Position numbers and translations under genes: made by a program. From Candidatus Aminicenantes bacterium (GTDB lineage: Bacteria; Acidobacteriota; Aminicenantia; Aminicenantales; UBA4085), in assembly GCA_963729855.1 (NCBI GenBank), contig CAVSPT010000005.1, positions 439,661 to 503,660 of the forward strand: a stretch of DNA of 64,000 bases, in the 5' to 3' direction. Shown one piece after another: positions 37,001 to 58,944 of this stretch (position 1 is its first letter; each line of letters begins with the position of its first letter). A model generated the notes under the pieces. It had not been told where the DNA came from and searched no databases. It saw only the letters and a program-made list of their open reading frames with translations.

Positions 37001-37030
37001 TCATTCCGCTTCGCCGGCCGGCCGGCGGGC

Positions 37031-38470: not shown

Positions 38471-40056
38471 CAACGGGCCTCGCCTTTGGCGGCCGGCCGC
38501 GGAGCGGCCCCCGCCGCGCCCGCCAACGGCTTATATTCAGGGACGGGGGCGGAGATCTCTTTTTCATAGAAGCCCGGATTGACGATGCGGATGACCTTCT
38601 CGACCGGTTTGTCCAGGACGTCGAGGATCGGTTTGGGGAAGATGCCGATGCCGAAGGCCAGAAAGACGAGGGGCAGGAAAAGGGCAAGCTCCCTCAAGCT
38701 GAGGTCCTTGAGGGACTCATTGGCCGGGTTCTGGAGCCTGCCGAACATGACCCGCTGGTAGAGCCACAGCATGTACCCGGCGCCGAGGATGATGCCGGTC
38801 GCGGCGACCGCCATCCAGACCGCGTTCACCGGGAAGACCCCCATCAGGATCATGAATTCGCCGATGAAGCCGTTCAGGCCGGGCAGGCCGATCGAAGACA
38901 TGGTCATGATCAGGAAGACCGCCGCGTAGACGGGCATCCGCGATGACAGGCCCCCGAACTCGGAGATCAGGCGGGTATGGCGCCTCTCGTAGAGGACGCC
39001 GACGATGAGAAAGAGGGCGCCGGTGGAGACGCCGTGGTTGATCATCTGCAGGACGGCCCCCTTGACGGCCAGGGGCGTCAGGGCGAACAGTCCGAGCATG
39101 ACGAACCCCATGTGCGACACCGAGGAGTAGGCGATCAGCCTCTTCATGTCCTTCTGCATGAGCGAAACGAGCGCGCCGTAGACGATGGAAATGAGGGCCA
39201 GGACGGCCACCAGCGGCACGAAGCGGCGGGCCGCTTCCGGGAAGAGCGGCAGGGAGAAGCGGACGAAGCCGTAGGTCCCCATCTTCAGCAGGACGCCGGC
39301 CAGGATGACGGAGCCGGCCGTGGGCGCCTCGACATGGGCGTCGGGAAGCCAGGTGTGGAAAGGAAACATCGGGACCTTGATGGCGAAGCCGAGAAAAAAG
39401 GCCAGGAAGACCCAAGCCTGCAGGGCGGCCGGCAGGATCGACCCCGTGGCCAGCATGGCCGTCCAATCGAAGGTGCGGTAGCGGGAGTAAAGGACCAGGA
39501 TGCCGACCAGCATCATGACCGAGCCGAAGAGCGTGTATAAAAAGAACTTGATGGCGGCATAGAGCCGGCGTTCGCCGCCGTAGATGCCGATCAGGAAATA
39601 CATCGGAACGAGGACGATCTCCCAGAAGACGTAGAACAGGATGAGGTCGAGCGAGACGAAGACCCCGATCATTCCGACTTCGAGAAGAAGCAGGAAGACG
39701 TAATATTCCTTCATCCTCGCCTTGACCGCGTTCCACGAGCTGAGGATGGCGATGAAGCTCAGGAGCGACGTCAGCAGGACGAGGAGAAGGGAAATCCCGT
39801 CGATTCCCATCAGGTATTGGACGCGCACAGATTTGATCCAGGGGGCCCGCTCGACGAACTGCATCTCGCCGGAACCGGCCTGGAAGCCCGTCAGCAGATA
39901 AAGCGTGGCCAGGAATTCCAGTCCGGCGACGGTGTTGGCCGCCAGCTTGACCGCCTTCTCTTTCCGCCCAGGCAGAACGAGAATGAGGATGAGCCCGGCC
40001 AGCGGGAAGAAGGTGATGAAGCTGAGAATCGGAATGCCGAAAATGGTCATGTTCAT
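38470..40056 (-). CDS. nuoM: NADH-quinone oxidoreductase subunit M
   Basis: NuoM/ND4 signatures 'FYVFWE', 'MYFLIG'. Start ATG at 40056 or 40050. Confidence 0.9.
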   Translation of the reverse strand: MNMTIFGIPILSFITFFPLAGLILILVLPGRKEKAVKLAANTVAGLEFLATLYLLTGFQAGSGEMQFVERAPWIKSVRVQYLMGIDGISLLLVLLTSLLSFIAILSSWNAVKARMKEYYVFLLLLEVGMIGVFVSLDLILFYVFWEIVLVPMYFLIGIYGGERRLYAAIKFFLYTLFGSVMMLVGILVLYSRYRTFDWTAMLATGSILPAALQAWVFLAFFLGFAIKVPMFPFHTWLPDAHVEAPTAGSVILAGVLLKMGTYGFVRFSLPLFPEAARRFVPLVAVLALISIVYGALVSLMQKDMKRLIAYSSVSHMGFVMLGLFALTPLAVKGAVLQMINHGVSTGALFLIVGVLYERRHTRLISEFGGLSSRMPVYAAVFLIMTMSSIGLPGLNGFIGEFMILMGVFPVNAVWMAVAATGIILGAGYMLWLYQRVMFGRLQNPANESLKDLSLRELALFLPLVFLAFGIGIFPKPILDVLDKPVEKVIRIVNPGFYEKEISAPVPEYKPLAGAAGAAPRPAAKGEAR

Positions 40057-40060
40057 GATC

Positions 40061-42058
40061 CTAGAAAATCGCCACGACCAGCGCCAGGATGACGGCGATG
40101 CCGAACACCAAGGCCATGGCATAGTTGTAGACATACCCGGTCTGGAGCCGCTTCAGGACCCGCGAAAACGTCCGGCCGGCGGCGCCGACTCCGTTGACCG
40201 CGCCGTCCACGACCCCGCCGTCGAAGCGAATGGAGACGTTGGAGATCATCCGGGTCAGGAAGGCGGCCCCGTTGACGATCCCGTCGATGATATGGGCGTC
40301 GATCCAGCCGCCGGCCCGGCCCAGGGCCATGGCCCCGGCGATGAAGACGCCGTCGTAGAGCTCATCGACGTAATATTTGCGGGTCAAGATCCGATAGGCC
40401 AGCTTCAGCCTGGCGGCCAGGCGGCGGGCCGGTTCCCCCTCCCGCTTGACGTAGATCCACCAAGCCAGGCCGATGCCTCCGGCCGCGACCGCGGCCGATA
40501 CGGCCATCAGGATGTATTCCGTCCTGGCGGCCAGCGGAAATTCGCGCGTTCCGGTGCTGGCTTCGAGGAAGCGGCCGAACCAATTTCCCCCGCCCAACGC
40601 GGCCGGCAGGCCGATGTAACCGCCCACGATGGACAGCCCGGCCAGGACGATGAGCGGCCGGATCATCACCGGCGGCGACTCATGGAGGTGATGCACCGCT
40701 TCGGACTCGATCCGCTCCCGGCCGTGGAACGTCAGAAAAACGAGGCGGAACATGTAAAACGCGGTCAATGCCGCGCCCAGCAGGCCGAGGGCGTAGACGA
40801 GGCGGTGGCCGGACACCCAAGCCGCGGCCAGGATCTCGTCCTTGGAGAAGAATCCGGCCAGCCCCGGGATTCCGGCGATGGCCAGCGCCCCGGCCAGGAA
40901 GACCCTGTAGGTCTTGGGGATATGCGCCCTCAAGCCCCCCATTTTGCGCATGTCCTGCTCGCCGGACAGGGCATGGATGACGCTGCCCGCGGCCAGGAAG
41001 AGGAGGCTCTTGAAGAAGGCGTGGGTCATGAGGTGGAAGACGCCGGCCGAATAGGCGCCGACGCCCAGGCCAAGGAACATATAGCCGATCTGGCTGATGG
41101 TCGAGTAGGCCAGGACCCTTTTAATGTCGTTCTGGACGAGGCCCATGCTGGCCGCATAGACCGCGGTGAACGCGCCGACCAGGGCCACGACCGTCAGGGC
41201 CGTGCCGGAGAAGGAGAAGAGCGCGTGCATGCGGGCGACCATGTAGACGCCGGCCGTGACCATCGTCGCGGCATGGATGAGGGCCGAGACCGGAGTCGGG
41301 CCCTCCATAGCGTCGGGCAGCCAGGTGTAGAGCGGGATCTGGGCCGACTTGCCCGTTGCGCCCAGGAACAGAAAGAGGGCGGCGGCGGTGGCCAGGCCCT
41401 TGCTCAGCGCCCCGCCCTCGACCAGGGCGGTGATCTTGGCCGTGTCGATCGTGCCCAAGGCGGCGACGAGCAGTCCGGCGCCCAGGAGGAACCCGAAATC
41501 GCCGACCCGGTTGGTGATGAAAGCCTTCTTGCCGGCATTCACCGCGGAGTCCTTGGTGAACCAGAAGCCGATCAGCAGATAGGAGCACAGCCCCACGCCT
41601 TCCCAGCCGATGAAGATCACGGCCAAGTTGGCGCCCAGCACCAGGATGAGCATGGCGAACGTGAACAGGTTGAGGTAGGCGAAGAACCGGGCGTAGCTCT
41701 TCTCGTGGGCCATGTAGCCGATGGAGTAGATGTGGATGAGCAGGCCGACGCCGGTGACGACCAGGGTCATCACGGCGGTCAGGGAATCGTAGCGGAAGGC
41801 CAGGTCGATGGAGAACGAAGCGGCCTTCCCTCCGAAAAGGGGCACCAGGCCGGACGGGATCCAGGTGAAGAGCTTTTCGACCAGGACGGCCTCGGGCCGG
41901 CCCAGAAGTCCGATGAAGGAAGCGGCCGCGGCGGCGAAGCTCAGGCCGGCCATGCCGACGGCGATGCCGTGGATCGTCCGCCTGGAAAAATATTTCACGC
42001 CCAGCAGGCCGTTGAGGAGCACCCCAACGAGCGGAAAAACGGGAATCAGCGCGAACAT
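40061..42058 (-). CDS. nuoL: NADH-quinone oxidoreductase subunit L
   Basis: NuoL/ND5 'GWEGVGLCSYLLIGFW', about 16 TM helices. Confidence 0.9.
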   Translation of the reverse strand: MFALIPVFPLVGVLLNGLLGVKYFSRRTIHGIAVGMAGLSFAAAAASFIGLLGRPEAVLVEKLFTWIPSGLVPLFGGKAASFSIDLAFRYDSLTAVMTLVVTGVGLLIHIYSIGYMAHEKSYARFFAYLNLFTFAMLILVLGANLAVIFIGWEGVGLCSYLLIGFWFTKDSAVNAGKKAFITNRVGDFGFLLGAGLLVAALGTIDTAKITALVEGGALSKGLATAAALFLFLGATGKSAQIPLYTWLPDAMEGPTPVSALIHAATMVTAGVYMVARMHALFSFSGTALTVVALVGAFTAVYAASMGLVQNDIKRVLAYSTISQIGYMFLGLGVGAYSAGVFHLMTHAFFKSLLFLAAGSVIHALSGEQDMRKMGGLRAHIPKTYRVFLAGALAIAGIPGLAGFFSKDEILAAAWVSGHRLVYALGLLGAALTAFYMFRLVFLTFHGRERIESEAVHHLHESPPVMIRPLIVLAGLSIVGGYIGLPAALGGGNWFGRFLEASTGTREFPLAARTEYILMAVSAAVAAGGIGLAWWIYVKREGEPARRLAARLKLAYRILTRKYYVDELYDGVFIAGAMALGRAGGWIDAHIIDGIVNGAAFLTRMISNVSIRFDGGVVDGAVNGVGAAGRTFSRVLKRLQTGYVYNYAMALVFGIAVILALVVAIF

Positions 42059-42061
42059 GGA

Positions 42062-42364
42062 TCAGCCTTTCAAGTCGTTGAGCTCGTCGATGTCGTAGCT
42101 GCGTTTATTGCGGAAATAGGCCAGGACCAGGGCGAAGCCGACGGCGGCCTCGGCCACGGCCATGATGACGACGAAGAGGGCGAAGATCTGTCCCTTGGGC
42201 GAATGAAGGTGCCGGCCCAGGCCGGCCAGGATGACGTTGACCCCGTTGAGCAGGAGCTCGAGCGACATCAGCATGATGACCAGGTTCTTGCGGAAGAGGA
42301 CGCCGAACAGGCCGAGGAAGAAGAGGATCAGGCCCAGACCGATGACGGCGTTAATCGGGATCAT
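42062..42364 (-). CDS. nuoK: NADH-quinone oxidoreductase subunit K
   Basis: 100-aa, 3-TM ND4L-like protein 'LMSLELLLNGVNV'. Confidence 0.9.
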   Translation of the reverse strand: MIPINAVIGLGLILFFLGLFGVLFRKNLVIMLMSLELLLNGVNVILAGLGRHLHSPKGQIFALFVVIMAVAEAAVGFALVLAYFRNKRSYDIDELNDLKG

Positions 42365-42857
42365 GGAGGAGCTTCCTTCGGGCGATGATGACGGCCCCGA
42401 TGAGCACGGCCAGGAGGAGGATCGAGGCCAGCTCGAAGGGGACGAGGTACGTGGAGAAGAGCATCTCGGACAGCGCCTTCAAATCGGCCGCCTGTTCGTG
42501 GCCGGCGGCCGGGACGTACCGGTATTTCAGGAGGACGGCGGCGATCTCGCCCAGCAGGAGGGCGGGAACGGCGAAGATGAAGATCTTGGGGAAGAGCTTG
42601 CGCCGCTCCCTGACGACCTCGTCGAGATTGACGATGATGATGACGAAAATATAGAGGACGACGATGCCGCCGCCGTAGACCAGGATCTGGATGGCGCCGA
42701 GGTATTCGGCTTCCAGGGTGAAAAAGACCCCGGCCACGGACAAGACGGTGAAGGCCAGGTAAAGGACGCTGTGCATGGCGCTCTTCTGCAGGATGACCAG
42801 GAGGGCCGAGACCACGGCCAGGGCGGCGAAGAAAGCGAAAATGGCCAGACTGATCAT
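42351..42857 (-). CDS. nuoJ: NADH-quinone oxidoreductase subunit J
   Basis: ATG at 42857. ND6-like hydrophobic protein. Confidence 0.8.
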   Translation of the reverse strand: MISLAIFAFFAALAVVSALLVILQKSAMHSVLYLAFTVLSVAGVFFTLEAEYLGAIQILVYGGGIVVLYIFVIIIVNLDEVVRERRKLFPKIFIFAVPALLLGEIAAVLLKYRYVPAAGHEQAADLKALSEMLFSTYLVPFELASILLLAVLIGAVIIARRKLLHDPD

Positions 42858-43330
42858 GGGCGGCAGCCTCCGCACAGGTGCTGATGGAGATCCTCGCCTT
42901 GAACGTACATGGCGGGCAGGTCGAAATGGAGAGCGGCCTTGTCGACCGCCGTCATGCGGAACTCCCGGGAAAACCGGATGGCCGCGGTCGGACAGACTTC
43001 GACGCACAGGCCGCAGAAGGTGCAGCGCTCCAGGGTCCAGTCGAATTTCGTCGGGCGCATGGTCCTGGCTCCCTCGGCCTTCAGGCCTTCGATGTCGAAG
43101 CAGCCCGTCGGGCAGATCCGCTGGCAGGCCTTGCAGGCCACGCACAGCGGCCCGCCCTGTTCGTCGCGATAGAGGCGGAGCAGGCCGCGGAAACGGGCCC
43201 CCGGCTCCCGGACCTGCTCCGGGTACTGGACGGTGACCTTGCGGCTGAAATAATGGCGCAGGGTGACGGACAGGCCGAGGAGCATGTCGGTCAGGAAGAA
43301 TTTCCTGAGGAAACGGCCGATCGATCTCAT
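42854..43330 (-). CDS. nuoI: NADH-quinone oxidoreductase subunit I (2x[4Fe-4S])
   Basis: 'CVACKACQRICP' and 'CTFCGLCVEVCP'. ATG at 43330. Confidence 0.9.
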   Translation of the reverse strand: MRSIGRFLRKFFLTDMLLGLSVTLRHYFSRKVTVQYPEQVREPGARFRGLLRLYRDEQGGPLCVACKACQRICPTGCFDIEGLKAEGARTMRPTKFDWTLERCTFCGLCVEVCPTAAIRFSREFRMTAVDKAALHFDLPAMYVQGEDLHQHLCGGCRP

Positions 43331-44355
43331 AGCACGGACCCCACCAGGGCGACCACGAGGAGGTTGACGAGCGACAGGGGAATGAGCCATTTCCAGACCA
43401 GCTGGATGAGCGAATCGAAGCGGTAGCGCGGGAACGTGCCCCGGATCCAGACGTAGCAATAGAGAAAGAACATGATCTTGATCAGGTACCAGACGAAGCC
43501 GGGGAGAAGATGGAGAACCCGCAGGGCCCGGACGTTGGGAAACGGCGGGAGCCAGCCGCCGAAGAAGAGGACGACCACGAGCGAGGAGACCAGGACCATG
43601 TGGGCATATTCGGCCACGTAGAAGTAGGCGAATTTAAAGCCCGAATATTCGGTGTGGTAGCCGGCCACCAGCTCGGATTCGGCCTCCGGCAGGTCGAAGG
43701 GGGCGCGGTTGGTCTCGGCGATGGCCGAGATCCAGAAGACGACGAAGGAAACGGGCAGGAGGAAGCCGTACCAGACGTGCGACGATTCCTGGCGGCGGAC
43801 GATCTCGACCAGGTCCATGGAGCGGGAAACGAAGGCGACGGAAAGGACGGTCAGTCCGACCGGGATCTCGTAGCTCAGGATCTGGATGACCGAGCGCAGG
43901 GCGCCCATCAGGGGATATTTGGAGTTGGAGGCCCAGCCGCCGAAGATGACGCCGAAAACCGAGATGGAGGACAGACCCAGGATGAGGAGCAGGCCGACCG
44001 GGCTCTCGGCCACCCAGAGCTTGAGCTCGTAAGTCCCGATGCGGATCGGTTCGCCGAGGGGCAGGAAGCAGAAGGACAGAAGGGTCGAAAACATCACCAG
44101 GACGGGAGCGATGTTGAAGAGGAACGTGTCGGCCCGGCTCTGGATGATGTCTTCCTTGAAGAACAGCTTGACCGCGTCGGCGAAGGGCTGGAGGATGCCC
44201 TGCCAGCCGACCCGGTTGGGACCGATGCGGCCCTGGATCCAGGCCACGACCCGGCGCTCCAGCCAGATCATGACGATGACCATGACCATGGGGTAGACGA
44301 TGATGGCCAGGATCTTGACCACGGGGATGAGGAAATCGGCGACGAAGGGCGTCAT
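43327..44355 (-). CDS. nuoH: NADH-quinone oxidoreductase subunit H
   Basis: ND1-like 'GPNRVGWQGILQPFADAVKLF'. ATGA overlap with the nuoD stop. Confidence 0.9.
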   Translation of the reverse strand: MTPFVADFLIPVVKILAIIVYPMVMVIVMIWLERRVVAWIQGRIGPNRVGWQGILQPFADAVKLFFKEDIIQSRADTFLFNIAPVLVMFSTLLSFCFLPLGEPIRIGTYELKLWVAESPVGLLLILGLSSISVFGVIFGGWASNSKYPLMGALRSVIQILSYEIPVGLTVLSVAFVSRSMDLVEIVRRQESSHVWYGFLLPVSFVVFWISAIAETNRAPFDLPEAESELVAGYHTEYSGFKFAYFYVAEYAHMVLVSSLVVVLFFGGWLPPFPNVRALRVLHLLPGFVWYLIKIMFFLYCYVWIRGTFPRYRFDSLIQLVWKWLIPLSLVNLLVVALVGSVL

Positions 44356-48523: not shown

Positions 48524-49942
<1,419 letters not shown>

Positions 49943-50136: not shown

Positions 50137-50222
50137 TCTATTCTAAGATGACAGCGATGCCGAGGTTAAGGGCCGGTTCCTCATAGAGGGCAGAAAACCA
50201 AATTCATAGAGGCCGTTGGGTG

Positions 50223-50762
50223 ATGATTAGCGCCAGATCGGTTTTGGACGAACTGAAGGCTTGCCATGTGACGTTCTGTGTCGGTTTGGCGGAAACGGCA
50301 TTGGCCGCTCTGGCCGCCCTTCTCGAGAACGATCAGTCGGTGCGGTTCGTTCCCGTGACCCGGGAAGGGGAAGCATTTGCTCTGGCTTCCGGATTGTGGA
50401 TCGGCGGACAGAACGCGGTCATCTTGGTGCAAAATACAGGATTGCTGGAGAGCGGAGATGCGCTCCGCGGAACGGCTCAACGCATGCGGGTCCCGGTCCT
50501 TTGCCTGATCGCGTATCGCGGCCACTCGCATTTGCTCGGGCAAAAAAAGCATAACGGGTCTGAGCCGCGGAATCCCGACGAGTTCAGCCGTCCCGACTTG
50601 GATTCGGCGGCTCTCGTCACGGAGCCCACATTGAATGCCTGGGGCATTCCCTTTGAATTCCTGGACTCCGATGCCGATCTCCCGAAAATATCACGAGCTT
50701 TCGACCGCGCCCAAAGGGAATCTCGGCCGGTCGCCCTCCTGGTCACGAACACGATGGTTTAA
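50223..50762 (+). CDS. Sulfopyruvate/phosphonopyruvate decarboxylase alpha-subunit-like (TPP enzyme N-terminal pyrimidine-binding half)
   Basis: About 180 aa: 'HVTFCVGLAETALAALAALLENDQSVRFVPVTREGEAFALASGLWIGGQNAVILVQNTG' fits a TPP enzyme N-terminal domain. Partnered immediately with the beta half. Confidence 0.65.
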   Translation: MISARSVLDELKACHVTFCVGLAETALAALAALLENDQSVRFVPVTREGEAFALASGLWIGGQNAVILVQNTGLLESGDALRGTAQRMRVPVLCLIAYRGHSHLLGQKKHNGSEPRNPDEFSRPDLDSAALVTEPTLNAWGIPFEFLDSDADLPKISRAFDRAQRESRPVALLVTNTMV

Positions 50763-50780
50763 TGATTCCTGGCGGAGACG

Positions 50781-51371
50781 ATGCTAACCAAGGAACAGCT
50801 GCTTAAGCCCCTGGCCCAGCTCCGAAGCACGGCCGTTGTCGTGACCTGCATGAGCGTAACGCGCCCCTGGGGACGCTATTCGTCGAGCGAGCTGGATTTT
50901 GCCTCGGCTGACAGCGCCATGGGTCATACGGCCGATCTGGCTCTGGGGATCGCTCTGGCCCAGCCGCAGCGCAAGGTCATCTGCTTAAATGGCGATGGAA
51001 GCATGTTGATGACCTTGGGAACGCTGGCCACGGTCGTCGCCGCGCGAGCCACGAACTTCGCCCTCTTCATCGTCCAGAATGATTCTTACGAGCTGACCGG
51101 ACATCAGCCGATTCCGGCGGCGGGGCGCATTGATTTTGCCCGGCTGGCGCGAGGCGCGGGTTTCGAACACGTCTATGATTTTGAAAATGCGGATGATTAT
51201 GAAAGGCGATTGCCGGCCGTTCTTGCGGAGGAAGGACCGGTGTTTGCGGCGGTTCGAGTCGAAAAAGGCGCGGAAGGCCCCATCAGCCGAAGCGCAAAGG
51301 AACCGTCTCGGTACCTTCAAGTCTCGCTCGCTGAATCAGCCCATCGTCTCAGGAAGATGTTGATATCGTAG
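50781..51371 (+). CDS. Sulfopyruvate/phosphonopyruvate decarboxylase beta-subunit-like (TPP-binding C-terminal half)
   Basis: 'ICLNGDGSMLM' GDG-x24-N thiamine-diphosphate motif. GGAG ribosome-binding site. Gene starts 19 nt after the alpha stop. Confidence 0.65.
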   Translation: MLTKEQLLKPLAQLRSTAVVVTCMSVTRPWGRYSSSELDFASADSAMGHTADLALGIALAQPQRKVICLNGDGSMLMTLGTLATVVAARATNFALFIVQNDSYELTGHQPIPAAGRIDFARLARGAGFEHVYDFENADDYERRLPAVLAEEGPVFAAVRVEKGAEGPISRSAKEPSRYLQVSLAESAHRLRKMLIS

Positions 51372-51509
51372 CCAAGCCGGCGGACCGCCCCCGCTCATCG
51401 CGCCGCCCGCCGTATGAGGTTCAAATCCTGCGGCCGAAATTATCGAAAACGATCGAAAGCCGAAAAGACCAGATCAATCATCGGGCCCAGGTCAAATCCC
51501 GGCTCCAAG

Positions 51510-51539
51510 TTGACGGATTTTTGGATTTTCCCATATAAT
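51510..51539 (+). promoter_or_regulatory. Sigma70-like promoter (TTGACG-18-TATAAT) upstream of the Cys-rich response regulator
   Basis: Read directly. Perfect -10 hexamer. Confidence 0.5.
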
Positions 51540-51660
51540 GGACAGCCGGAATGAAGATCTACTGAATACGGTGGGGCATTCCGGGGGGATTTCTTATGTT
51601 GCGCGGAGAGAGCATATTCGATAAACAAAGGAAAGCAGGGAGATCGACGTCCATTCCATA

Positions 51661-52371
51661 ATGCCGTCGGAGCCAATCATCATGGAGAAAAAGATAGGAT
51701 CCTTTATCCAGGTCTATTGTCCGGAAATCATGGACATGATCAACCCGGGAGAATGGACGGATTGCCCTTATTATCGAGGCCAGAAGCTCGACATGTCGAA
51801 TACCGAGGAGGCGTTGAAGCAGATCTTCCGCTGCCATGTCCAATGCGACTGCAAGATTCAATATCAGTATTACGAGGAGGGGAAGCTGGTGAAGAAGGTT
51901 CTCGATTCCGTGGAGGACCAGGAAAGCCTCCGCCGGATCCTTCTTCTGGTGAGCAAACCGACCGAGAAGCCGAATAAAAAAACGAAAATCCTGATCGTTG
52001 ACGACGACGCGGATTTCCTCGAAATGCACTCCGTTGTCCTGAAAAACAAGGGATACGAAGTCATCACGGCCCCGAGTGCAAAAAAATGCGAGCAGGCCCT
52101 GGAGAAAGGCCGGCCCGACCTCGTGATCCTGGACGTCATGATGGAGCAGTTCGACGCCGGATTTGAACTGAGCAAGAAGATCAAGAAGAAGTATGACGGC
52201 CTGCCGGTGATGCTCCTCACGTCCATCGGGCAACAAACAGGGCTGGACTTCTCCTCCAACGCCGAGGTCTTAAGAACGACCGGCGCCGACGCTCTTCTCG
52301 ACAAGCCGGTCAGTCCCGAGGTGTTCATCGCCGAAATTGAGAGGTTGACCGCGCCCATGAAGAAGCGGTAA
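51661..52371 (+). CDS. Response regulator with N-terminal Cys-rich domain and C-terminal receiver (REC) domain
   Basis: C-terminal 'KILIVDDDADFLEMH...DLVILDVMM...KPV' REC with phospho-acceptor Asp. N-terminal about 90 aa with C20, C35, C58, H59, C62, C64 ('YCPE','DCPYY','RCHVQCDC'). Alternative ATG at 51682 has the better ribosome-binding site. Confidence 0.7.
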   Translation: MPSEPIIMEKKIGSFIQVYCPEIMDMINPGEWTDCPYYRGQKLDMSNTEEALKQIFRCHVQCDCKIQYQYYEEGKLVKKVLDSVEDQESLRRILLLVSKPTEKPNKKTKILIVDDDADFLEMHSVVLKNKGYEVITAPSAKKCEQALEKGRPDLVILDVMMEQFDAGFELSKKIKKKYDGLPVMLLTSIGQQTGLDFSSNAEVLRTTGADALLDKPVSPEVFIAEIERLTAPMKKR

Positions 52372-52387
52372 GAGACCCGCGGCTTCC

Positions 52388-54475
52388 ATGGACATCCTCA
52401 GCATCTCCAACGCCAAGTGCCGCAAGTGCTACCGGTGCGTACGGGAGTGCCCGACCAATGCCCTGAAAATCGACCAGGGGGTGGTCAAGAGAATCTGGAG
52501 CCGCTGCATTCTCTGCGGGCTCTGCTACCGGCACTGCCCCCACGCGGCCGTGAACGCCCATACCGGAATCAAGCGCGTCCTCGATCTGCTCGAGTCGGGG
52601 CAGAAAGTCGTCGCCTGCCTGGACCCCACTTTTCCGGCGGTCTTGGACAGGGGCACGCCGGGCCAGCTTGTGACCGCGTTGAAAAAACTCGGTTTTCACG
52701 AAGTCTGGGAGGCCGCGGTCGGGGGCGACTTGGTGGCCGAACCCTACCGTTCCTGGCTCGCCCAAAATAGGGAATCTAGCTGGATTTCTTCATTCTGCCC
52801 GTCGCTCGTCTTTTACATTCAAAAATTCGCCCCCTCTCTGAGCAGCCAGCTCGTGCCGATCGTTTCTCCGATGATTGCCTGCGGCCGAGCGGTTAAACAG
52901 CTCTTGGGTGCCGACACGAAAGTGGTTTTTATCGGTCCGTGCATCTCTCGAATCTGGGAGCGCATGGACCGGAGCGGAAGGGAAGCCATCGATTATGTAT
53001 TGGTCTATCGGGACATCACCAACACTCTCAGGGCGAGAGGAATCGACCGCGAAGAACAAGAACCGTCAGAATTTGACGGGCCCCGGAGCAGCCTGGGAAG
53101 GGTCCTGAGCTTTTCGGGGGGGATGAGCAAGTGCGCCGGGTTCGAGCAGGACCTCCTGAATCTGGACTATGTGGTTGAGGCCGGAGCCCCAGAAGCCATG
53201 CGGGCCTTGAAGCAGCTCCAGGAAGGAAAGATCCGCGCGCGGTTTCTCGACTTGCTGTTGTGCCGTGGCTGCATCAACGGTCCCGTAACGGACATGCAAA
53301 TCTCGGGTCCCAGTCGAAAGCAGATTGTCGTGGATTTCATTAAAGCCCAGGATCTGGTCGAGCCGGCGAAAAAAAAGGAAGGCCTCGGGGAGCCCTCTCA
53401 TTTGAATCTCACACGGAGCTTTCGACCCCATGATGCGTCCCTGCCGGATCCCACGGACGCGGAGGTCGAGGCCGTTCTGGCTCAACTCGGGAAATCCTAC
53501 CCCGACCAAAACCTGGACTGCGGGGCCTGCGGCTACAGCTCCTGCCGGGAGAAGGCCAAGGCCATCGTCCTGGGATTGGCTGAGATGGAAATGTGCCACC
53601 ATTTTCTTTTGGAACGCCTCCAGAGCCTCTATTCGCAGCTGGAAAAGTCTCACCGCCAGCTCAAGAGCTCCCATGAGCAATTGGAGGGGGCCCAACGGCA
53701 GTTGATCCAGACGGAGAAAATGGCCTCCCTCGGACAGTTGGCGGCGGGCGTGGCCCATGAGCTGAACAACCCCATCGGCACGATCATGATGTTCAGCCGG
53801 ATGATCCAGAAGGAAATGGCCCAGGATCAAAAATGGCAGAAGGATATCACCATCGTCGTCCAGGAAGCGGACCGGGCGGCTAAGATCATCAAGGACCTGC
53901 TGAGCTTCGCCAGGGAAACGAAGGTCAAGCCAGGGCAGGTGAGCATCAATCCGGTCATCCAAGAAACCCTATCGCTTCTTGTCAAGCAATCTCTCTTTCA
54001 CAATATCGAAGTGGTTGTCCTCTTGGACCCGACGCTGCCGACGACGTTTGCCGATCCGGACCTCCTGAAGCAGGTATTTTTCAACATCATCCTGAACGGC
54101 GCCCAGGCTATGGAAGGGAAAGGGACGTTGACCATCCAAACTCAGAACATCGATAACGGCAGGACCATCGAAATCCGGATCCAAGACACCGGCAAGGGAA
54201 TCCCCGAGAAACACATCCCCAAGCTCTTCGACCCGTTCTTCACGACCAAGGAGAAGGGAACGGGGCTGGGCCTGGCCCTTGTTTACAGCATCGTTTCCAA
54301 ACACAAGGGATCGATCGCCGTAGAAAGCGAGCTGGAGAAAGGCGCCACGTTCCTCATCCGGCTGCCCATCCTGAGCCAGGAAGACTGGCTGAAGCGTGAA
54401 GGCCAGGTCGAAGACTTAGGGACCGGGCTCGAAGGAAAATACAATGAAAGCCCAAGCAAAGATCTTATTGGTTGA
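52388..54475 (+). CDS. Histidine kinase with N-terminal [FeFe]-hydrogenase-like (HydS-type sensory) domain: 2x[4Fe-4S] ferredoxin + H-domain-like + Cx2Cx4Cx16C + HisKA + HATPase_c
   Basis: 'CRKCYRCVRECP', 'CILCGLCYRHCP'. H-cluster motif analogues 'SSFCPS' (TSCCP), 'GPCISRIWE' (MPCxxKxxE), 'LLLCRGCINGP' (MACxGGCxxG). 'CGACGYSSC-x16-C'. H-box 'AHELNNPIG'. HATPase 'DTGKGIPEKH...GTGLGLALV'. Confidence 0.8.
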   Translation: MDILSISNAKCRKCYRCVRECPTNALKIDQGVVKRIWSRCILCGLCYRHCPHAAVNAHTGIKRVLDLLESGQKVVACLDPTFPAVLDRGTPGQLVTALKKLGFHEVWEAAVGGDLVAEPYRSWLAQNRESSWISSFCPSLVFYIQKFAPSLSSQLVPIVSPMIACGRAVKQLLGADTKVVFIGPCISRIWERMDRSGREAIDYVLVYRDITNTLRARGIDREEQEPSEFDGPRSSLGRVLSFSGGMSKCAGFEQDLLNLDYVVEAGAPEAMRALKQLQEGKIRARFLDLLLCRGCINGPVTDMQISGPSRKQIVVDFIKAQDLVEPAKKKEGLGEPSHLNLTRSFRPHDASLPDPTDAEVEAVLAQLGKSYPDQNLDCGACGYSSCREKAKAIVLGLAEMEMCHHFLLERLQSLYSQLEKSHRQLKSSHEQLEGAQRQLIQTEKMASLGQLAAGVAHELNNPIGTIMMFSRMIQKEMAQDQKWQKDITIVVQEADRAAKIIKDLLSFARETKVKPGQVSINPVIQETLSLLVKQSLFHNIEVVVLLDPTLPTTFADPDLLKQVFFNIILNGAQAMEGKGTLTIQTQNIDNGRTIEIRIQDTGKGIPEKHIPKLFDPFFTTKEKGTGLGLALVYSIVSKHKGSIAVESELEKGATFLIRLPILSQEDWLKREGQVEDLGTGLEGKYNESPSKDLIG

Positions 54476-54845
54476 TGACGACCCCGATTTTCTGGAGATG
54501 CACAAGGCCGTTCTCCAGAGCCGGGGCTATGAGGTTTTCACCGCCGCGAGCGCCCAGGAAGGCCTGGGACGCGTCCGGGCGGAGATGCCGGACCTGATCA
54601 TCCTGGACCTCATGATGGAGAAGCATGACGCGGGATTTTCCTTCAGCAAGGCGGTCAAGACCGACCCGCTGTTCAGGACGATCCCCATCCTCATGGTGAC
54701 GTCGGTGGCCGAGGCCACCGGCTATCGCTTTTCGCTCGAGGAAGACGGGTATTGGATGAAAACGGACGATTTCCTGAATAAGCCCGTTCCGCCTGAAGTC
54801 CTCCTGGAAGCCGTCGATAAACTCCTGCAGAAGAAAAAAGAATGA
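54444..54845 (+). CDS. Stand-alone receiver-domain response regulator (CheY-like)
   Basis: 'ILLVDDDPDFLEMH...DLIILDLMM...KPV'. Overlaps the kinase stop. Confidence 0.8.
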   Translation: MKAQAKILLVDDDPDFLEMHKAVLQSRGYEVFTAASAQEGLGRVRAEMPDLIILDLMMEKHDAGFSFSKAVKTDPLFRTIPILMVTSVAEATGYRFSLEEDGYWMKTDDFLNKPVPPEVLLEAVDKLLQKKKE

Positions 54846-54846
54846 A

Positions 54847-56325
54847 ATGAATACACAAGGCCGAATTCTCGTCGTCGACGATGAAATGGGAATCCGCGAA
54901 GGCTGCCGGCGCGTCCTGGCGGAGGAAGGGTACGACATCGACCTGGCCGGAGACGGAAATGCCGGCCTGCAGAGGGCCCGGGAGAAATCCTATGACCTCG
55001 TCCTGGTCGACCTCATGATGCCGGGCATCGGCGGGCTGGACATGATCAATAAGATCCACGAGATCGATCCCGAGATCATCATGGTCGTGATCACGGGATT
55101 TGCCACCATCGAAACGGCGGTCGAGGCGACGAAGAGGGGGGCCTACGATTACCTTCCGAAACCCTTCACTCCGGAAACGCTGGCCGTCCTGGTCAAGAGG
55201 GGGCTCGAGAAGCGGGAGCTCCGATTGGAGGCCCAGAGGCTTCAGCAGGAACGGGAGCAGAGGCTCCTGGAGCTGGCCGGTGAAAAGAGCCGCCTCCGGA
55301 GCATCATCGGCTGCATGGCCGACGGCGTTCTGGTCACGAACCTCGAGGGTCACCTGGTCCTCTGGAACGCCTCCGCCGTGAACATGCTGAAACTCCGGGG
55401 AACGGACGAACCCGGGAAACCTCCGGGCCATTACATCAAGAATCAGCCTTTGATCGAATCCCTGGCAAAAATCATGAACTCGAAGGACGAAAGTGTCTCG
55501 ATGATCAGCCAGGAGATCCCCTCGGATGACGCGAAATCGGTCCTGATGGCCCAGATGGCCCCCGTCCGGGACGACCAGGGGAAGCTTCTCGGAGCCGTGA
55601 CGGTCCTGAGGGACATCACGAAGCTCAAGGAGATCGATAAGATCAAATCCCAGTTCGTCTCCATGGTGGCGCATGAGCTTCGCTCGCCCTTGGCGGCCAT
55701 CGAAGGCTGGCTGGGCCTCCTGCTGTCCGGCGAAGTCGAAGGGGACAAAGAACAAAAACGACAATGGCTGCGGCGGGCGAAAGAGCGGGCCCACTCTCTC
55801 CTGGCTCTCGTCCAGGACTTGCTGGAGATCAACAAGATCGAGGCCGGGAAGGTCGCCCTGAAGATGGAGTCCCTCCAGATGACCGACATCCTGGGCAAGA
55901 TCATCGACTTTCTCAAGCCCGAAGCGGACAAGAAAAATGTCTCCATCCAAATGAGATCTCCCGCGCCGATTCCGCTCCTCCGGGCCGACGTTCAGGACAT
56001 GGAAAAGCTCTTCACCAACCTGATCAGCAATGCCATCAAATACAACGTCGAGAAGGGTTCGATCACGATCGAAACGTCTTTGGATGCGAACTACGTCGGG
56101 ATTCACGTCCACGATACCGGGATCGGCATATCCCGGGACGACCTTCCGCGGATTTTCGACGATTTCTTCCGGGCCGAAAACAGCAAAACGGCTAAGATCA
56201 GCGGAACAGGACTGGGGTTGACGATCGCCAAGAAAATCGTGGACTCCCACTTCGGGCATATCGAAGTGAAGAGCGAGCCGGATAAGGGAAGCACCTTCTC
56301 CGTCTACCTGCCTTACCGGACATGA
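54847..56325 (+). CDS. Hybrid sensor: N-terminal receiver + PAS + HisKA + HATPase_c histidine kinase
   Basis: 'ILVVDDEMGIREG...DLVLVDLMMPG', PAS-like 'IGCMADGVLVTNLEGHLVLWN', 'VAHELRSPLAAI', 'GTGLGLTIAKKIV'. Confidence 0.8.
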   Translation: MNTQGRILVVDDEMGIREGCRRVLAEEGYDIDLAGDGNAGLQRAREKSYDLVLVDLMMPGIGGLDMINKIHEIDPEIIMVVITGFATIETAVEATKRGAYDYLPKPFTPETLAVLVKRGLEKRELRLEAQRLQQEREQRLLELAGEKSRLRSIIGCMADGVLVTNLEGHLVLWNASAVNMLKLRGTDEPGKPPGHYIKNQPLIESLAKIMNSKDESVSMISQEIPSDDAKSVLMAQMAPVRDDQGKLLGAVTVLRDITKLKEIDKIKSQFVSMVAHELRSPLAAIEGWLGLLLSGEVEGDKEQKRQWLRRAKERAHSLLALVQDLLEINKIEAGKVALKMESLQMTDILGKIIDFLKPEADKKNVSIQMRSPAPIPLLRADVQDMEKLFTNLISNAIKYNVEKGSITIETSLDANYVGIHVHDTGIGISRDDLPRIFDDFFRAENSKTAKISGTGLGLTIAKKIVDSHFGHIEVKSEPDKGSTFSVYLPYRT

Positions 56326-56347
56326 AAGAAGAGCAAAGAGAGCCGAG

Positions 56348-58612
56348 ATGAGTCTAAGCCGAACGCATCAACCCAACGAAATCCTCAGGAAGGAGCAGCT
56401 GGCTCCGGCGATCACGCTGTTCGAAGTCTATGCTCCGCTCGTCGCCCGAACCGTCCGGGCCGGCCAGTTTGTCGTCGTTCGGGCCGACGACTATGCGGAA
56501 CGGATTCCGCTCACGGTCGCCGACCGCAGCCTCGAAAACCAATCCATCACCCTGATCGTCCAAGTCGTCGGCCTCTCGACCAGGAAGATGGACACGCTCA
56601 AAGCCGGGGATGCGTTCCTCGACGTCGTCGGGCCCCTGGGGCAGCCGACGGAGATCAAGAAGGCCGGGACCGTGGTCTGTATCGGGGGAGGCGTCGGCGT
56701 CGCGCCCGTCTATCCCATCACCAAAGCTTTCAGAGCGGCGGGAAGCCGCATTCTGGCCATCATCGGCGCTAAGAACAAAGAGATGATCATCCTGGAAAAC
56801 GAGATGCGGGCCGTGAGCGACGAGCTTTACATCACGACGGACGACGGCACGGCCGGCCGCCGGGGGTTCGTCTCGGACGAACTCCAAAGGCTGATCACGG
56901 ACAAAGTGCCGATCGACCTGGTCATCGCCATCGGGCCCGGGATCATGATGAAAGTCATATCCGACATCACCAGGAAACACGGGATCCCGACGATCATCAG
57001 CCTGAACTCGCTGATGGTGGACGGGACCGGCATGTGCGGCAGCTGCCGGATCACCGTGGGGAACGAGACGAAGTTTGTCTGTGTCGACGGGCCCGAGTTC
57101 GACGCCCACCAGGTGGATTTCCAGGAGCTCCTCAAGAGGTCGGAAATGTACAAGCGAGAGGAGCACCGGGCCATGTGGGATCATGCCTGCCGGCTCCTGG
57201 CCGCCGAGAAGGCGCTCGGCAAGGCCAAACGTCGGGAGCCCATGCCCAAACAGGACCCCAAGCTCCGGGTTCAAAATTTCAACGAGGTCGCCCTGGGCTA
57301 CACCAAGGAGCAGGCCATTCGTGAAGCCTCGCGGTGCTTGAGTTGTAAAAAGTCGCCCTGCGTGGCCGGATGCCCGGTCGACATCGATATCCCGGGCTTC
57401 ATCGAACTCGTCCGGAAGGGCGACCTCATCGCGGCCAGTCATAAGATCAAAGAGAAGAACAGCCTCCCCGCCATCTGCGGACGGGTCTGCCCCCAGGAAG
57501 AGCAATGCGAGGTCGCCTGCGTCCTGTCCAAAAAAGGGCAGCCCATCGCCATCGGTCGGCTGGAACGGTACGTGGCCGATTATGAATTCCAGCAGGGGGA
57601 CGTCCGGATGCCGAAAAATCTGAGCCCGACGGGGAAAAAGGTCGCCGTCATCGGGGCCGGGCCGGCCGGTTTGTCGGCGGCCAGCGAACTTGCCAAAATG
57701 GGGCACAGCGTCATCGTCTTCGAGGCCCTCCACAAGCCGGGCGGCGTTCTCGTTTACGGGATTCCCGAGTTCCGTCTTCCCAAGTGGATCGTCCAGCGCG
57801 AATGCGAATACATCGGCAGGCTGGGGGCCGAAATCCGGGTGAGCCAGGTCGCCGGAAAATCCTTCACCATCGACGACCTTTTGAGCAACGGCTATGATGC
57901 CGTCTTCATCGGGACCGGGGCGGGCCTGCCGTACTTCATGAAAATCCCCGGGGAGAACCTGAACGGGGTGTACTCGGCCAACGAGTTCCTGTCCCGGGTG
58001 AACCTCATGAAGGCCTATCTTTTCCCGGAATTCCAGACCCCCGTCCATTATGGGCAGAAGATCGCCGTCGTGGGAGGCGGGAACGTGGCCATGGATTCCG
58101 CCCGGACCTCGCTCCGCTTGGGAGCCGAAAAAGTCTACCTGATCTACCGCCGGGCGAGAGAACAAATGCCGGCCCGCGAGGAGGAGATCGAGAACGCTTT
58201 CGAGGAAGGCGTCGAACCGCGCCTGCTGACCAATCCCATTCGGATCCTGGGAAACGAAAAAGGCTGGGTGAAGGGGATCGAATGCATCCAGATGGAGCTC
58301 GGAGAAGCGGATGGATCAGGCCGGAGACGGCCAATTCCCAAAAAGGGCTCTGAGCACATTATTGATGTCGACATGGTGATCATGGCCATCGGCCAGGGCC
58401 CCAATCCCCTCTTGACGTCGACGACCGCCGGCTTGGCGCTGACAAAGACGGGGAACATCATTGCCGACGAAACGACGGGCAAGACCTCGAAGAAAGGAGT
58501 GTTCGCCGGCGGCGACATCGTCACCGGCGCGGCCACGGTCATCCTGGCCATGGGGGCGGGCAAAAAGGCGGCCCAATCGATCGACGTCTATTTAAGGACT
58601 GGAGAGTGGTGA
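56348..58612 (+). CDS. Fused NfnA-NfnB-like flavoprotein: PyrK/SudB-like FAD + [2Fe-2S] domain fused to GltD/SudA-like 2x[4Fe-4S] FAD/NAD(P)H oxidoreductase
   Basis: N-terminal half 'GGGVGVAPV', 'CGSCRI...C.DGPEF'. C-terminal half 'CLSCKKSPCVAGCP', 'CGRVCPQEEQCEVAC', 'VAVIGAGPAGLSAA', 'GVFAGGDIVTG'. Confidence 0.8.
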   Translation: MSLSRTHQPNEILRKEQLAPAITLFEVYAPLVARTVRAGQFVVVRADDYAERIPLTVADRSLENQSITLIVQVVGLSTRKMDTLKAGDAFLDVVGPLGQPTEIKKAGTVVCIGGGVGVAPVYPITKAFRAAGSRILAIIGAKNKEMIILENEMRAVSDELYITTDDGTAGRRGFVSDELQRLITDKVPIDLVIAIGPGIMMKVISDITRKHGIPTIISLNSLMVDGTGMCGSCRITVGNETKFVCVDGPEFDAHQVDFQELLKRSEMYKREEHRAMWDHACRLLAAEKALGKAKRREPMPKQDPKLRVQNFNEVALGYTKEQAIREASRCLSCKKSPCVAGCPVDIDIPGFIELVRKGDLIAASHKIKEKNSLPAICGRVCPQEEQCEVACVLSKKGQPIAIGRLERYVADYEFQQGDVRMPKNLSPTGKKVAVIGAGPAGLSAASELAKMGHSVIVFEALHKPGGVLVYGIPEFRLPKWIVQRECEYIGRLGAEIRVSQVAGKSFTIDDLLSNGYDAVFIGTGAGLPYFMKIPGENLNGVYSANEFLSRVNLMKAYLFPEFQTPVHYGQKIAVVGGGNVAMDSARTSLRLGAEKVYLIYRRAREQMPAREEEIENAFEEGVEPRLLTNPIRILGNEKGWVKGIECIQMELGEADGSGRRRPIPKKGSEHIIDVDMVIMAIGQGPNPLLTSTTAGLALTKTGNIIADETTGKTSKKGVFAGGDIVTGAATVILAMGAGKKAAQSIDVYLRTGEW

Positions 58613-58944
58613 GCCCCCTGTTGGCACAACGTCGTCTCCGTCAACCGCCCGGCGTCTGGCTTTCAGCCGCCAGAGCAAACTGTTCAAAGACGCGCGCCCG
58701 GGATGTCTAAAGCGACTTCAATCGGCTGAGCCGGGGCCTGCGCCGGCTCATGGCCGGCAGCCGCAAATTCGGCCTGTCCTCCATCACCCGCGACGACATC
58801 AGCGGCCTCCCCTGCGTCCTCGACGTCGACAAGGACGAGGTGGAAAAGATCCCCAAGGGCCGAGGACGCGGGATCCGACCGACGGAAAAGGGTGCTTTTC
58901 GGGCGCCGCGGGGGCTTGTGGTAAAATAGTTACAAGGACCGACG

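Follow-up and report, generated by a model that had tools for sequence, protein, structure and literature searches.

Does a single gene in Candidatus Aminicenantes bacterium encode both halves of Nfn, the electron-bifurcating enzyme with which anaerobes keep NADH, NADPH and ferredoxin in balance, and if so, is the fusion genuine? In the window, the 64,000-nucleotide stretch of DNA that was analysed, the ORF list and translation gave an uninterrupted reading frame of 754 aa on the plus strand (56348-58612), with an ATG start and a TGA stop (Table 1). The comparisons described below supported a predicted product that carries both halves of an electron-bifurcating Nfn, in the order NfnA then NfnB, as one polypeptide. 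On the opposite strand, a 603-aa ORF (56354-58165) had no Pfam match or family and was discarded as a shadow ORF of this 62% G+C gene.

Table 1. Positions, in window coordinates, of the fused nfn gene, its parts and motifs, and the neighbouring features.
Feature	Position	Strand	Evidence or description
Promoter-like TTGACG-18-TATAAT	51510..51539	+	Precedes the five-gene block; consensus match only (11/12; 3 sites found vs 2.1 expected)
Response regulator RR1	51661..52371	+	~105 N-terminal residues without assignment, then receiver domain
HydHK	52388..54475	+	Two [4Fe-4S], [FeFe]-hydrogenase H-domain, Cx2Cx4Cx16C, HisKA, HATPase_c
RR2, receiver-only response regulator	54444..54845	+	Start overlaps HydHK end by 32 nt
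Hybrid kinase	54847..56325	+	REC-PAS-HisKA-HATPase_c; stop 22 nt before nfn ATG
Fused nfn gene	56348..58612	+	Single ORF, 754 codons + TGA; NF009414 match; full-length homologues 750-759 aa
NfnA-like half, residues 1-273	56348..57166	+	FNR/PyrK-type FAD and NAD(H) domain, 2Fe-2S domain, start of C-terminal helix
a-FAD contact strand ERIPLT (ERxPxT), residues 51-56	56498..56515	+	Regex; kept in 59/59 homologues
[2Fe-2S] site DGTGMCGSCR-x10-CV, residues 225-246	57020..57085	+	Exact match to published NfnA motif
Junction, residues 274-293	57167..57226	+	End of NfnA tail helix joined to NfnB N-terminal arm
NfnB-like half, residues 294-754	57227..58609	+	Two-[4Fe-4S] helical domain, b-FAD domain, NADPH domain
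First [4Fe-4S] motif RCLSCKKSPCVAGCPV (RCx2Cx4Cx3CPV), residues 329-344	57332..57379	+	Regex; kept in 59/59 homologues
Second [4Fe-4S] motif GRVCPQEEQCEVAC-x11-GRLER (GRVCPQExQCx3C...Gx2ER), residues 378-407	57479..57568	+	Regex
b-FAD dinucleotide-binding motif GAGPAG, residues 436-441	57653..57670	+	Aligned with GSGPAG, GAGPAG of solved NfnB chains
NADPH site GGGNVAMD (576-583) and Arg pair in YRR (600-602)	58073..58153	+	Regex and alignment
Decayed PF01645 Glu_synthase-domain fragment, C-terminal 74 residues	58669..58860	+	tblastn, 51% identity, E 6e-14

The two halves were recognised by both domain and full-subunit comparisons. An earlier note on this DNA had assigned residues of roughly 1-280 to the small Nfn/Sud subunit and roughly 300-754 to the large GltD-like subunit, and both assignments held: T. 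maritima NfnA and P. furiosus NfnI-S matched residues 10-273, over 264 residues, and NfnB matched residues 294-754 (E 5e-184). The three profiles that the note had named were all found in Pfam searches near these ranges (DHODB_Fe-S_bind, residues 220-257, E 1.8e-14; Fer4_20, 307-416, E 5.9e-44; Pyr_redox_2, 430-738, E 4.4e-35), together with NAD_binding_1 at residues 112-205. With HMMER, the NfnA-like half matched 5jca_S (E 9e-93, 311-314 bits) and 4ylf_A (E 2e-78, 264-267 bits), the small-subunit E-values overall being about 1e-91 to 2e-77 and far beyond chance, and the NfnB-like half matched 4ylf_B (E 4.9e-184, 616.8 bits) and 5jca_L (E 2.2e-154, 518.8 bits). The NfnA-like half also scored above the cut-off of NF004862 (393 bits vs 220). 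Against NF009414 (PRK12778) the whole protein covered profile positions 2-750 of 752 and reached 1077.6 bits vs a cut-off of 1103; it has the architecture of that family, yet lies just outside the curated equivalog, 25 bits under the cut-off.

An AF2 model built on a 59-sequence alignment had a mean pLDDT of 67 and a pTM of 0.53. Its NfnA half was well predicted (pLDDT ~90; TM 0.86-0.87 to 5jca_S and 4ylf_A by Foldseek), and pLDDT fell below 50 in the Fe-S domain and junction (residues 289-420), so the model is usable for the NfnA half only and not for the packing of the halves. A Foldseek search with the model repeated the sequence result.

Next, we searched the protein by regular expression for the Nfn motifs defined in PMC6405883 and scored their conservation among 59 homologues. 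All were present, and they were kept in 57-59 of the 59. The [2Fe-2S] string quoted in the earlier note is present as quoted (C230-G-S-C233-R-I ... C245-V-D-G-P), and careful alignment, the check it had proposed, placed the 2Fe-2S and FAD motifs exactly on those of T. maritima NfnA and P. furiosus NfnI-S. The ligand positions Asp225, Cys230, Cys233 and Cys245 are invariant across the homologue alignment. Asp225 stands in the alignment where PyrK, the electron-transfer subunit of dihydroorotate dehydrogenase B, has its first Cys; PyrK itself was rejected as an identity, given Asp rather than Cys as first ligand and scores of 123-153 bits vs cut-offs of 219-314 for NF000796 to NF000799. The second [4Fe-4S] motif has an x11 spacing, as in P. 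furiosus NfnI-L; the spacing in T. maritima is x13. GAGPAG, GGGNVAMD and YRR align with 4ylf_B and 5jca_L, with YRR falling on 'ivyrrt' in T. maritima and 'ilyrrt' in P. furiosus; the Arg pair serves the 2'-phosphate in the NADPH site (PMC6405883). The NfnA half keeps GGGVGVAP, the form seen in NfnI and also in T. maritima NfnA. The specificity of this half for NAD(H) is not certain from sequence, because the NAD site is poorly conserved (PMC6405883).

Among known systems, modules and cofactor motifs are those of T. maritima NfnAB (4YLF/4YRY) and P. furiosus NfnI (NfnSL, formerly sulfide dehydrogenase SudBA; 5JCA/5JFC), with identities to the two, in Foldseek alignments of the model, of 61% and 54% (large subunits) and of 46% and 50% (small subunits). 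Those enzymes are two polypeptides, whereas the window protein is one, with about 20 residues between the aligned ends. Its domain order is that of 'Pattern B' (C. autoethanogenum CAETHG_RS07665, C. ljungdahlii, Bacteroidaceae, Prevotellaceae and Fusobacteriaceae; PMC6405883) and its size is close (754 aa vs a 2,274-bp gene, ~757 aa). The order is opposite in 'Pattern C' (NfnB then NfnA; NF009415/PRK12779), against which the protein scored 598.9 bits vs a cut-off of 1519, and it lacks the added ferritin-like domain of PRK12775 (839 bits vs 1895) as well as the NuoF-like and other modules of the Bfu-type NfnABC/StnABC complexes (9BOV, 9N5U, 8OH5). The GltD-like NfnB module is common to the window protein and to Pattern C, PRK12775 and NfnABC/StnABC.

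Domain order, integrity of all cofactor motifs and conservation as a single ORF are direct observations on the fused protein; its activity, bifurcation and physiological direction we infer by analogy with the solved two-subunit enzymes. By that analogy, the bifurcating FAD, which lies in the NfnB part, would receive a hydride from NADPH. The high-potential electron would then reach the second FAD, that of the NfnA part, by way of the Asp/Cys3 [2Fe-2S] cluster and go on to NAD+; the low-potential electron would reach ferredoxin by way of the two [4Fe-4S] clusters. This reaction would be reversible, with NADH and reduced ferredoxin yielding 2 NADPH in vivo, or the reverse.

We consider it probable, judging from sequence, that the 754-aa protein is a single-chain electron-bifurcating Nfn, and weighed this reading against two other functions. 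One is a ferredoxin:NADP+ oxidoreductase of NfnII/Xfn type, non-bifurcating, which would share fold and cofactors but work without NADH coupling, or with some other third substrate. P. furiosus NfnII (5VJ7) has the fold and clusters of the window protein (identity 51% and 38%), is itself a strong match (chain A 489.5 bits, chain B 190-193 bits) and has NAD-independent activity (PMC6405883), and bifurcation is not provable from sequence alone. Both halves nevertheless score lower against Xfn than against the bifurcating enzymes (large half, 490 vs 617 and 519 bits; small half, 193 vs 314 and 267 bits), and the NfnA nucleotide domain keeps GGGVG, the NfnI-type loop, where Xfn has GAYTG and several insertions, making this alternative unlikely.

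More improbable again is an NADPH-dependent glutamate synthase (a 'homotetrameric GltA'/GltD-like small chain) that would feed a glutamate-synthase catalytic protein. This is the function implied by JGI and NCBI names, and the TIGR01316 'gltA' model exceeds its cut-off (607.6 vs 471.75 bits), but it does so at residues 304-749, on the GltD-like half only; the N-terminal half is specifically NfnA-like, with an Asp-ligated cluster that GltD partners lack, and Pfam found no amidotransferase, FMN-synthase (PF01645) or GXGXG domain in the protein. Also in favour of this function are an NADP-specific glutamate dehydrogenase 6.4 kb upstream, a PF01645 Glu_synthase-domain gene directly downstream of nfn in a 96%-identical relative, and a PF01645 remnant at 58669-58860 in the window. 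However, the relative's PF01645 gene lies on the opposite strand, in a cluster with its own NuoE/NuoF-type electron-input module, all that is left of that gene in the window is a decayed 74-residue fragment containing a stop, whereas nfn is intact and conserved, and none of the window's large ORFs is long enough for a bacterial GltB.

We then asked how the halves are joined and whether the join is real. NfnA homology stops at residue 268 of 276 in T. maritima and 272 of 284 in P. furiosus, and NfnB homology begins at residues 3 and 6, respectively. The junction is therefore some 20 residues in which essentially natural termini are joined, and the fusion brings no new domain; it fixes the NfnA:NfnB stoichiometry at 1:1 through the NfnA C-terminal helix linked to the NfnB N-terminal arm. 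Within the junction W277, D278, C281 and R282 are invariant, and its length is equal in the seven Aminicenantes loci compared. Among six Aminicenantes relatives the junction had no indels and differences by codon position at residues 260-305 were 0.12, 0.12 and 0.37, a third-position excess, and the fused junction is, on this codon pattern, under purifying selection.

A lost stop codon or frameshift that joined adjacent nfnA and nfnB during sequencing or assembly would give the same picture, and the idea has some footing, in that the genes are separate at most related loci (56/80 in a tblastn sample of the best 80 of at least 594 relatives) and in the same frame at all 56 of these, such that one base change could fuse them. 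Yet 24 of the 80 loci carry a single ORF, which together with the third-position excess and the lack of indels at the junction argues against a frameshift artefact. The frameshift check called for in the earlier note likewise came out in favour of the fusion: the same 754-aa single ORF recurs in independent JGI, ENA, NCBI and Logan assemblies, two separate JGI samples carry a 96%-identical gene, and one clade has the single ORF at 17 genome loci, its junction conserved and free of indels. An artefact is accordingly exceedingly improbable. Programmed read-through and recent fission were considered for the same-frame split pairs and set aside. The bias is most likely a ranking artefact, because tblastn can read across a stop within a single frame, which gives same-frame pairs an advantage among the top 80; many of the split junctions, moreover, hold several stops and long spacers.

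Contrary to what the earlier note had implied, the fused gene is not novel but an ordinary addition to a type already described and common in databases. Knowledge of single-gene Nfn goes back to the C. ljungdahlii genome, for which it was noted; fused Nfn was documented by Buckel and Thauer 2018 (PMC5861303), and the review of Liang et al. 2019 named the single-gene form, with NfnA N-terminal and NfnB C-terminal, 'Pattern B' (PMC6405883). NCBIfam, too, has a curated model for this architecture (NF009414). More than 120 database clusters hold full-length proteins 75-96% identical to the fused Nfn, mostly labelled 'glutamate synthase', and besides Aminicenantes the form occurs in KSB1, Eisenbacteria, Planctomycetota/Brocadiia and others. 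Aminicenantes and their relatives are not among the Pattern B phyla of PMC6405883, and fused Nfn reaches well past the Firmicutes, Bacteroidetes and Fusobacteria of that review.

In a rough NJ tree of the 80-locus sample, in which the clostridial fused sequence was not placed, fused forms stood in at least five separate places and had unrelated linkers. Fused Nfn thus probably arose several times, as far as these sequences indicate, and the Aminicenantes clade may represent an independent fusion. The 2019 review described fused forms as uncharacterised (PMC6405883), and our literature searches yielded neither a purified nor a biochemically characterised fused form and, on the subject of Nfn in Aminicenantes, nothing beyond that review; any fused Nfn is for this reason a reasonable target for single-gene expression.

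Finally, we examined the genes around nfn. It is the last gene of a 7.1-kb block (RR1, HydHK, RR2, hybrid kinase, nfn) that is collinear at the nucleotide level with the 96%-identical relative from 51483 to 58627, and that is conserved across Aminicenantes MAGs while the flanks vary; in one KSB1 MAG it occurs without RR1. Pfam, NCBIfam and PDB sequence searches returned no output domain for the N-terminal 105 residues of RR1. The 22-nt gap between the hybrid kinase and nfn holds no terminator-like site, there is no convincing intrinsic terminator after nfn, and an Rfam scan of 48-60 kb gave no match. The PF01645 fragment just past nfn, with its internal stop and a 10-residue deletion, marks a rearrangement breakpoint; in two related loci (L081 and L082) an intact 499-aa PF01645 gene lies downstream of nfn. 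Upstream of the block, TPP genes at 50220-51371 were considered as a 2-oxoacid:ferredoxin oxidoreductase and rejected, their matches being to split sulfopyruvate/phosphonopyruvate-decarboxylase-type proteins, all below cut-offs.

HydHK shares its N-terminal two [4Fe-4S], H-domain and Cx2Cx4Cx16C with putative sensory [FeFe]-hydrogenases (TmHydS and TamHydS, group C/D) and with the HATPase_c-bearing group C1 of Hydrogenedentota (PMC8163306, PMC11406978). The four H-cluster Cys are kept, and the proton-relay Cys and both framing Met are replaced, changes typical of sensory hydrogenases (PMC8163306). Unlike those proteins, HydHK has its H-domain fused directly to HisKA/HATPase_c, without PAS, and it shares a block with nfn rather than lying beside a catalytic hydrogenase. 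The nfn gene is probably co-transcribed with the upstream phosphorelay, including the sensory-type [FeFe]-hydrogenase-like kinase, and the conserved block with varying flanks suggests H2- or redox-sensing control. More tentatively, the five genes may make up a conserved module that ends with the fused nfn and is inherited as a block in Aminicenantes (and lacks RR1 in the KSB1 MAG); this module would form a dedicated signalling circuit if HydHK senses H2 or the redox state of ferredoxin.

For the family as a whole, the 'glutamate synthase small chain' and 'homotetrameric' labels amount to a systematic mis-annotation, through which Nfn goes unseen when the metabolism of uncultivated anaerobes is reconstructed. 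If the proposed circuit exists, it would couple the partial pressure of H2 to the enzyme by which NADH, NADPH and ferredoxin are interconverted, and would provide a physiological partner for the 'group C1' sensory hydrogenases, which are linked to histidine kinases and have so far been without a function. The fused nfn itself matters little as a discovery; the one lead from which something new could be learned about how anaerobes regulate redox balancing is the conserved linkage of nfn to a hydrogenase-like sensor kinase.

The nfn gene formed a single ORF of 754 codons, with an ATG start and no internal stop. Its product contained four Pfam domains (see the table), and residues 10-274 matched the small subunit of P. 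furiosus NfnI (5jca_S; E 9e-93) and T. maritima NfnA (4ylf_A; E 2e-78), while residues 294-754 matched T. maritima NfnB (4ylf_B; E 4.9e-184) and the large subunit of P. furiosus NfnI (5jca_L; E 2.2e-154). Pfam and solved-chain matches thus bear out the earlier note, which had assigned an NfnA-like followed by an NfnB-like range and whose [2Fe-2S] string, 'CGSCRI...C.DGP', was correct as quoted. A long opposite-strand ORF (56354-58165) had no family match and was rejected as a shadow ORF of this G+C-rich gene.

Homology to NfnA stopped at residue 268/276 (T. maritima) or 272/284 (P. furiosus) and that to NfnB started at residue 3 or 6, respectively; given these end points, the junction of ~20 residues (274-293) is little beyond joined natural termini. 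We scanned loci of relatives, taking one genome per species and the best 80 of at least 594 relatives, with single or separate ORFs decided at each locus by a stop-to-stop check. A single ORF was found in 24/80 loci (L001-L017, L034, L039, L046, L054, L061, L066 and L075) and split nfnA and nfnB in the other 56. Within the clade of the window protein the junction sequence was kept (...REEHRAxWDHxCRL...AEKxLxKAxxRExMPKQDPK...), and its length was equal across the 7/7 Aminicenantes loci compared. Comparison with six Aminicenantes loci over codons 260-305 showed zero indels and differences of 0.12, 0.12 and 0.37 at positions 1, 2 and 3, the pattern left in sequence that is translated and under constraint, and a 96%-identical 754-aa gene was present in two separate JGI samples. 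The conserved junction, codon pattern and separate samples exclude, for practical purposes, a frameshift or assembly artefact; the frameshift check left one ORF, and the single polypeptide proposed from the sequence stands.

Four residues of the junction helix (W277, D278, C281 and R282) were invariant in 59 fused homologues, and many separate NfnA proteins end in a resembling HxC[RK][LI] motif; solved NfnA chains gave no alignment over residues 277-282. The split loci returned (within L018-L080) had nfnA and nfnB in the same frame in 56/56 cases, many one stop apart, which, among the best 80 of at least 594 relatives, is probably an artefact of tblastn ranking.

Fused Nfn is a known type. The two Nfn genes are fused in C. 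ljungdahlii (Buckel and Thauer 2018, PMC5861303), and Pattern B, in which NfnA is N-terminal and NfnB C-terminal, was defined in Firmicutes, Bacteroidetes and Fusobacteria, with a 2,274-bp C. autoethanogenum gene as an example and the properties of fused forms uncharacterised as of 2019 (Liang et al. 2019, PMC6405883). The searchable literature yielded no biochemical work on a fused Nfn after that review. Exactly this architecture is the subject of NCBIfam NF009414 (PRK12778, 752 positions), to which the window protein aligned over positions 2-750 with 1077.6 bits, just below the cut-off of 1103; it thus belongs to the Nfn family with Pattern B architecture yet lies formally just outside the equivalog. 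The interpretation is supported, and the protein adds one more example to an already described type, of low general interest.

Features of the nfn product, its gene block and surroundings (residues refer to the nfn product unless stated)
Feature	Position	Strand	Detail
Proton_antipo_M genes (two)	37031-40134	-	Nuo/Mrp-type membrane subunits
Glutamate dehydrogenase	48590-49942	+	NADP-specific; NF006929, 765 bits, above cut-off
Split TPP-dependent decarboxylase	50220-51371	+	sulfopyruvate/phosphonopyruvate-decarboxylase-like, below cut-offs
TTGACG-18-TATAAT	51510-51539		promoter-like; consensus evidence only
RR1	51661-52371		response regulator
RR1 residues 1-105	51661-51975
HydHK	52388-54475	+	[FeFe]-hydrogenase-like histidine kinase, 695 aa
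RR2	54444-54845		response regulator
HybHK	54847-56325		REC-PAS hybrid kinase
nfn	56348-58612	+	fused NfnA-NfnB
Junction helix	57176-57193		residues 277-282
PF01645 remnant	58669-58860	+	C-terminal 74 residues
NAD_binding_1	residues 112-205		Pfam
DHODB_Fe-S_bind	residues 220-257		Pfam
Fer4_20	residues 307-416		Pfam
Pyr_redox_2	residues 430-738		Pfam
a-FAD strand	residues 51-56		ERIPLT
[2Fe-2S] site	residues 225-246		DGTGMCGSCR-x10-CV
First [4Fe-4S] motif	residues 329-344		RCLSCKKSPCVAGCPV
Second [4Fe-4S] motif	residues 378-407		GRVCPQEEQCEVAC-x11-GRLER
GAGPAG	residues 436-441
GGGNVAMD	residues 576-583
Arg pair in YRR	residues 600-602
FAGGD	residues 719-723

All conserved Nfn motifs listed by Liang et al. 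(2019, PMC6405883) were present and were retained in 57-59 of 59 full-length homologues. Asp225 stands where PyrK has its first Cys, and the x11 spacing of the second [4Fe-4S] motif is the same in P. furiosus NfnI. By analogy with solved enzymes (PMC6405883), NADPH would reduce the bifurcating b-FAD, from which one electron would pass through the Asp/Cys3 [2Fe-2S] cluster and a-FAD to NAD+ and the other through two [4Fe-4S] clusters to ferredoxin, in a reaction expected to be reversible; fusion would fix the stoichiometry and add no new chemistry. An AF2 model (pLDDT 67, pTM 0.53) was good for the NfnA half alone (TM 0.86-0.87 to 5jca_S and 4ylf_A) and elsewhere too poor to confirm inter-domain packing.

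Two other readings of the product were weighed. That it is an Xfn-like, non-bifurcating enzyme is disfavoured by its sequence: the NfnA half scored 193 bits against Xfn/NfnII and 314 bits against the NfnI small subunit, and its GGGVGVAP nucleotide loop is common to NfnI and T. maritima NfnA, whereas Xfn/NfnII has GAYTG in its place. The database label would instead make it a glutamate synthase, a reading with which a TIGR01316 match to the GltD-like half and a PF01645 gene downstream of nfn in the closest relative (L081, 96% identical) agree. However, the product has no catalytic GltB domain, the PF01645 gene of the relative lies on the opposite strand and is accompanied by a NuoE/NuoF-type module of its own, and its counterpart in the window is a 74-residue fragment with a stop, while nfn is intact.

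This Glu_synthase-domain remnant, in 'intergenic' sequence 3' of nfn, is 51% identical, lacks 10 residues through a deletion and is interrupted by an internal stop. In L081, a cluster convergent with nfn and 3' of it (10533-18025, minus strand) encodes a Glu_synthase-domain protein, Fer2_4/Fer4, NuoF-like and NuoE-like proteins, HATPase_c, PHP and a second HydS-like hydrogenase, and resembles a module of the Bfu/HydABC style that carries a sensor of its own. L003 and more than 10 split loci likewise have NuoE/NuoF-like genes no farther than 10 kb from nfn(AB).

Four genes precede nfn, each overlapping the next or separated from it by no more than 22 nt. HydHK comprises 2x[4Fe-4S], an [FeFe]-hydrogenase H-domain and a Cx2Cx4Cx16C motif, the H-domain part being joined directly to a HisKA/HATPase_c transmitter without a PAS domain. 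Aligned with solved hydrogenases, it retained four H-cluster Cys, while the proton-relay Cys was replaced by Phe, the framing Met by Gly and Leu, and Lys by Arg; such changes are hallmarks of putative sensory hydrogenases (PMC8163306), and HydHK is a putative sensory-type [FeFe]-hydrogenase-like kinase. In Hydrogenedentota, 'group C1' proteins with a HATPase_c domain have been reported with no role assigned to them (PMC11406978). The ~105 N-terminal residues of RR1 had no match in Pfam, NCBIfam or PDB sequences and may be an unrecognised phosphorelay output domain; Eisenbacteria-like loci L013 and L016 showed ~50% identity over them.

The order RR1-HydHK-RR2-HybHK-nfn was kept in all Aminicenantes loci with enough upstream sequence (L001-L006, L008, L010, L081 and L082). 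A KSB1 MAG (L012) retained HydHK-RR2-HybHK-nfn with the complete HydHK architecture, and other clade members retained parts of the block. Nucleotide collinearity with L081 was confined to 51483-58627 (92.8% over 7,151 nt), exactly the block that begins at the promoter-like site and ends 15 nt beyond the nfn stop, and the sequences on either side are unrelated. The block thus behaves as a unit, and seems to have been inherited or moved as such. The PF01645 remnant begins 42 nt beyond the collinear end, a position that suggests a rearrangement scar, and upstream of the L081 block lie an rve transposase and a methyltransferase. Just upstream of the window block are glutamate dehydrogenase and decarboxylase genes, and G+C falls to 0.55 across 48-52 kb; L004 and L006 likewise have glutamate dehydrogenase upstream, and in L074, a Planctomycetales MAG, it lies immediately upstream of split nfnA. 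Farther away, AT skew was unusually high (+0.23) over 36-44 kb (36001-44000), and several large ORFs at 39.9-47.9 kb had no Pfam match.

A search of 5.8 billion proteins returned at least 120 clusters, nearly all of 750-759 aa and 75-96% identical over essentially their full length; the few named among the matches listed were Aminicenantes and Terriglobales MAGs, labelled 'glutamate synthase'. Searched exhaustively, the 50%-identity representatives yielded 5,977 matches at E<=1e-30, the best 150 of which included ~20 separate clusters of 718-790 aa matching from NfnA to NfnB at full length, plus longer variants. A rough NJ tree, built without support values, placed the window protein in a clade whose members, from Aminicenantes, KSB1, Eisenbacteria and unclassified MAGs, are all fused. 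The remaining fused forms (Planctomycetota/Brocadiia, Halanaerobium, Veillonella and one 'archaeon' MAG) were scattered among split ones, with unrelated linkers that were acidic, long or of a distinct conserved type. Tree and linkers fit several independent fusions or fissions, as already proposed in 2019 (PMC6405883).

The five-gene context is a moderately interesting lead, with two putative options: a phosphorelay regulating nfn, or Nfn serving the sensor. Among P0001-P0120, the matching database clusters, nearly all named homologues bear either the label 'glutamate synthase (NADPH/NADH) small chain' or the label 'glutamate synthase (NADPH), homotetrameric', and this systematic misannotation hides Nfn in MAG-based metabolic reconstructions.
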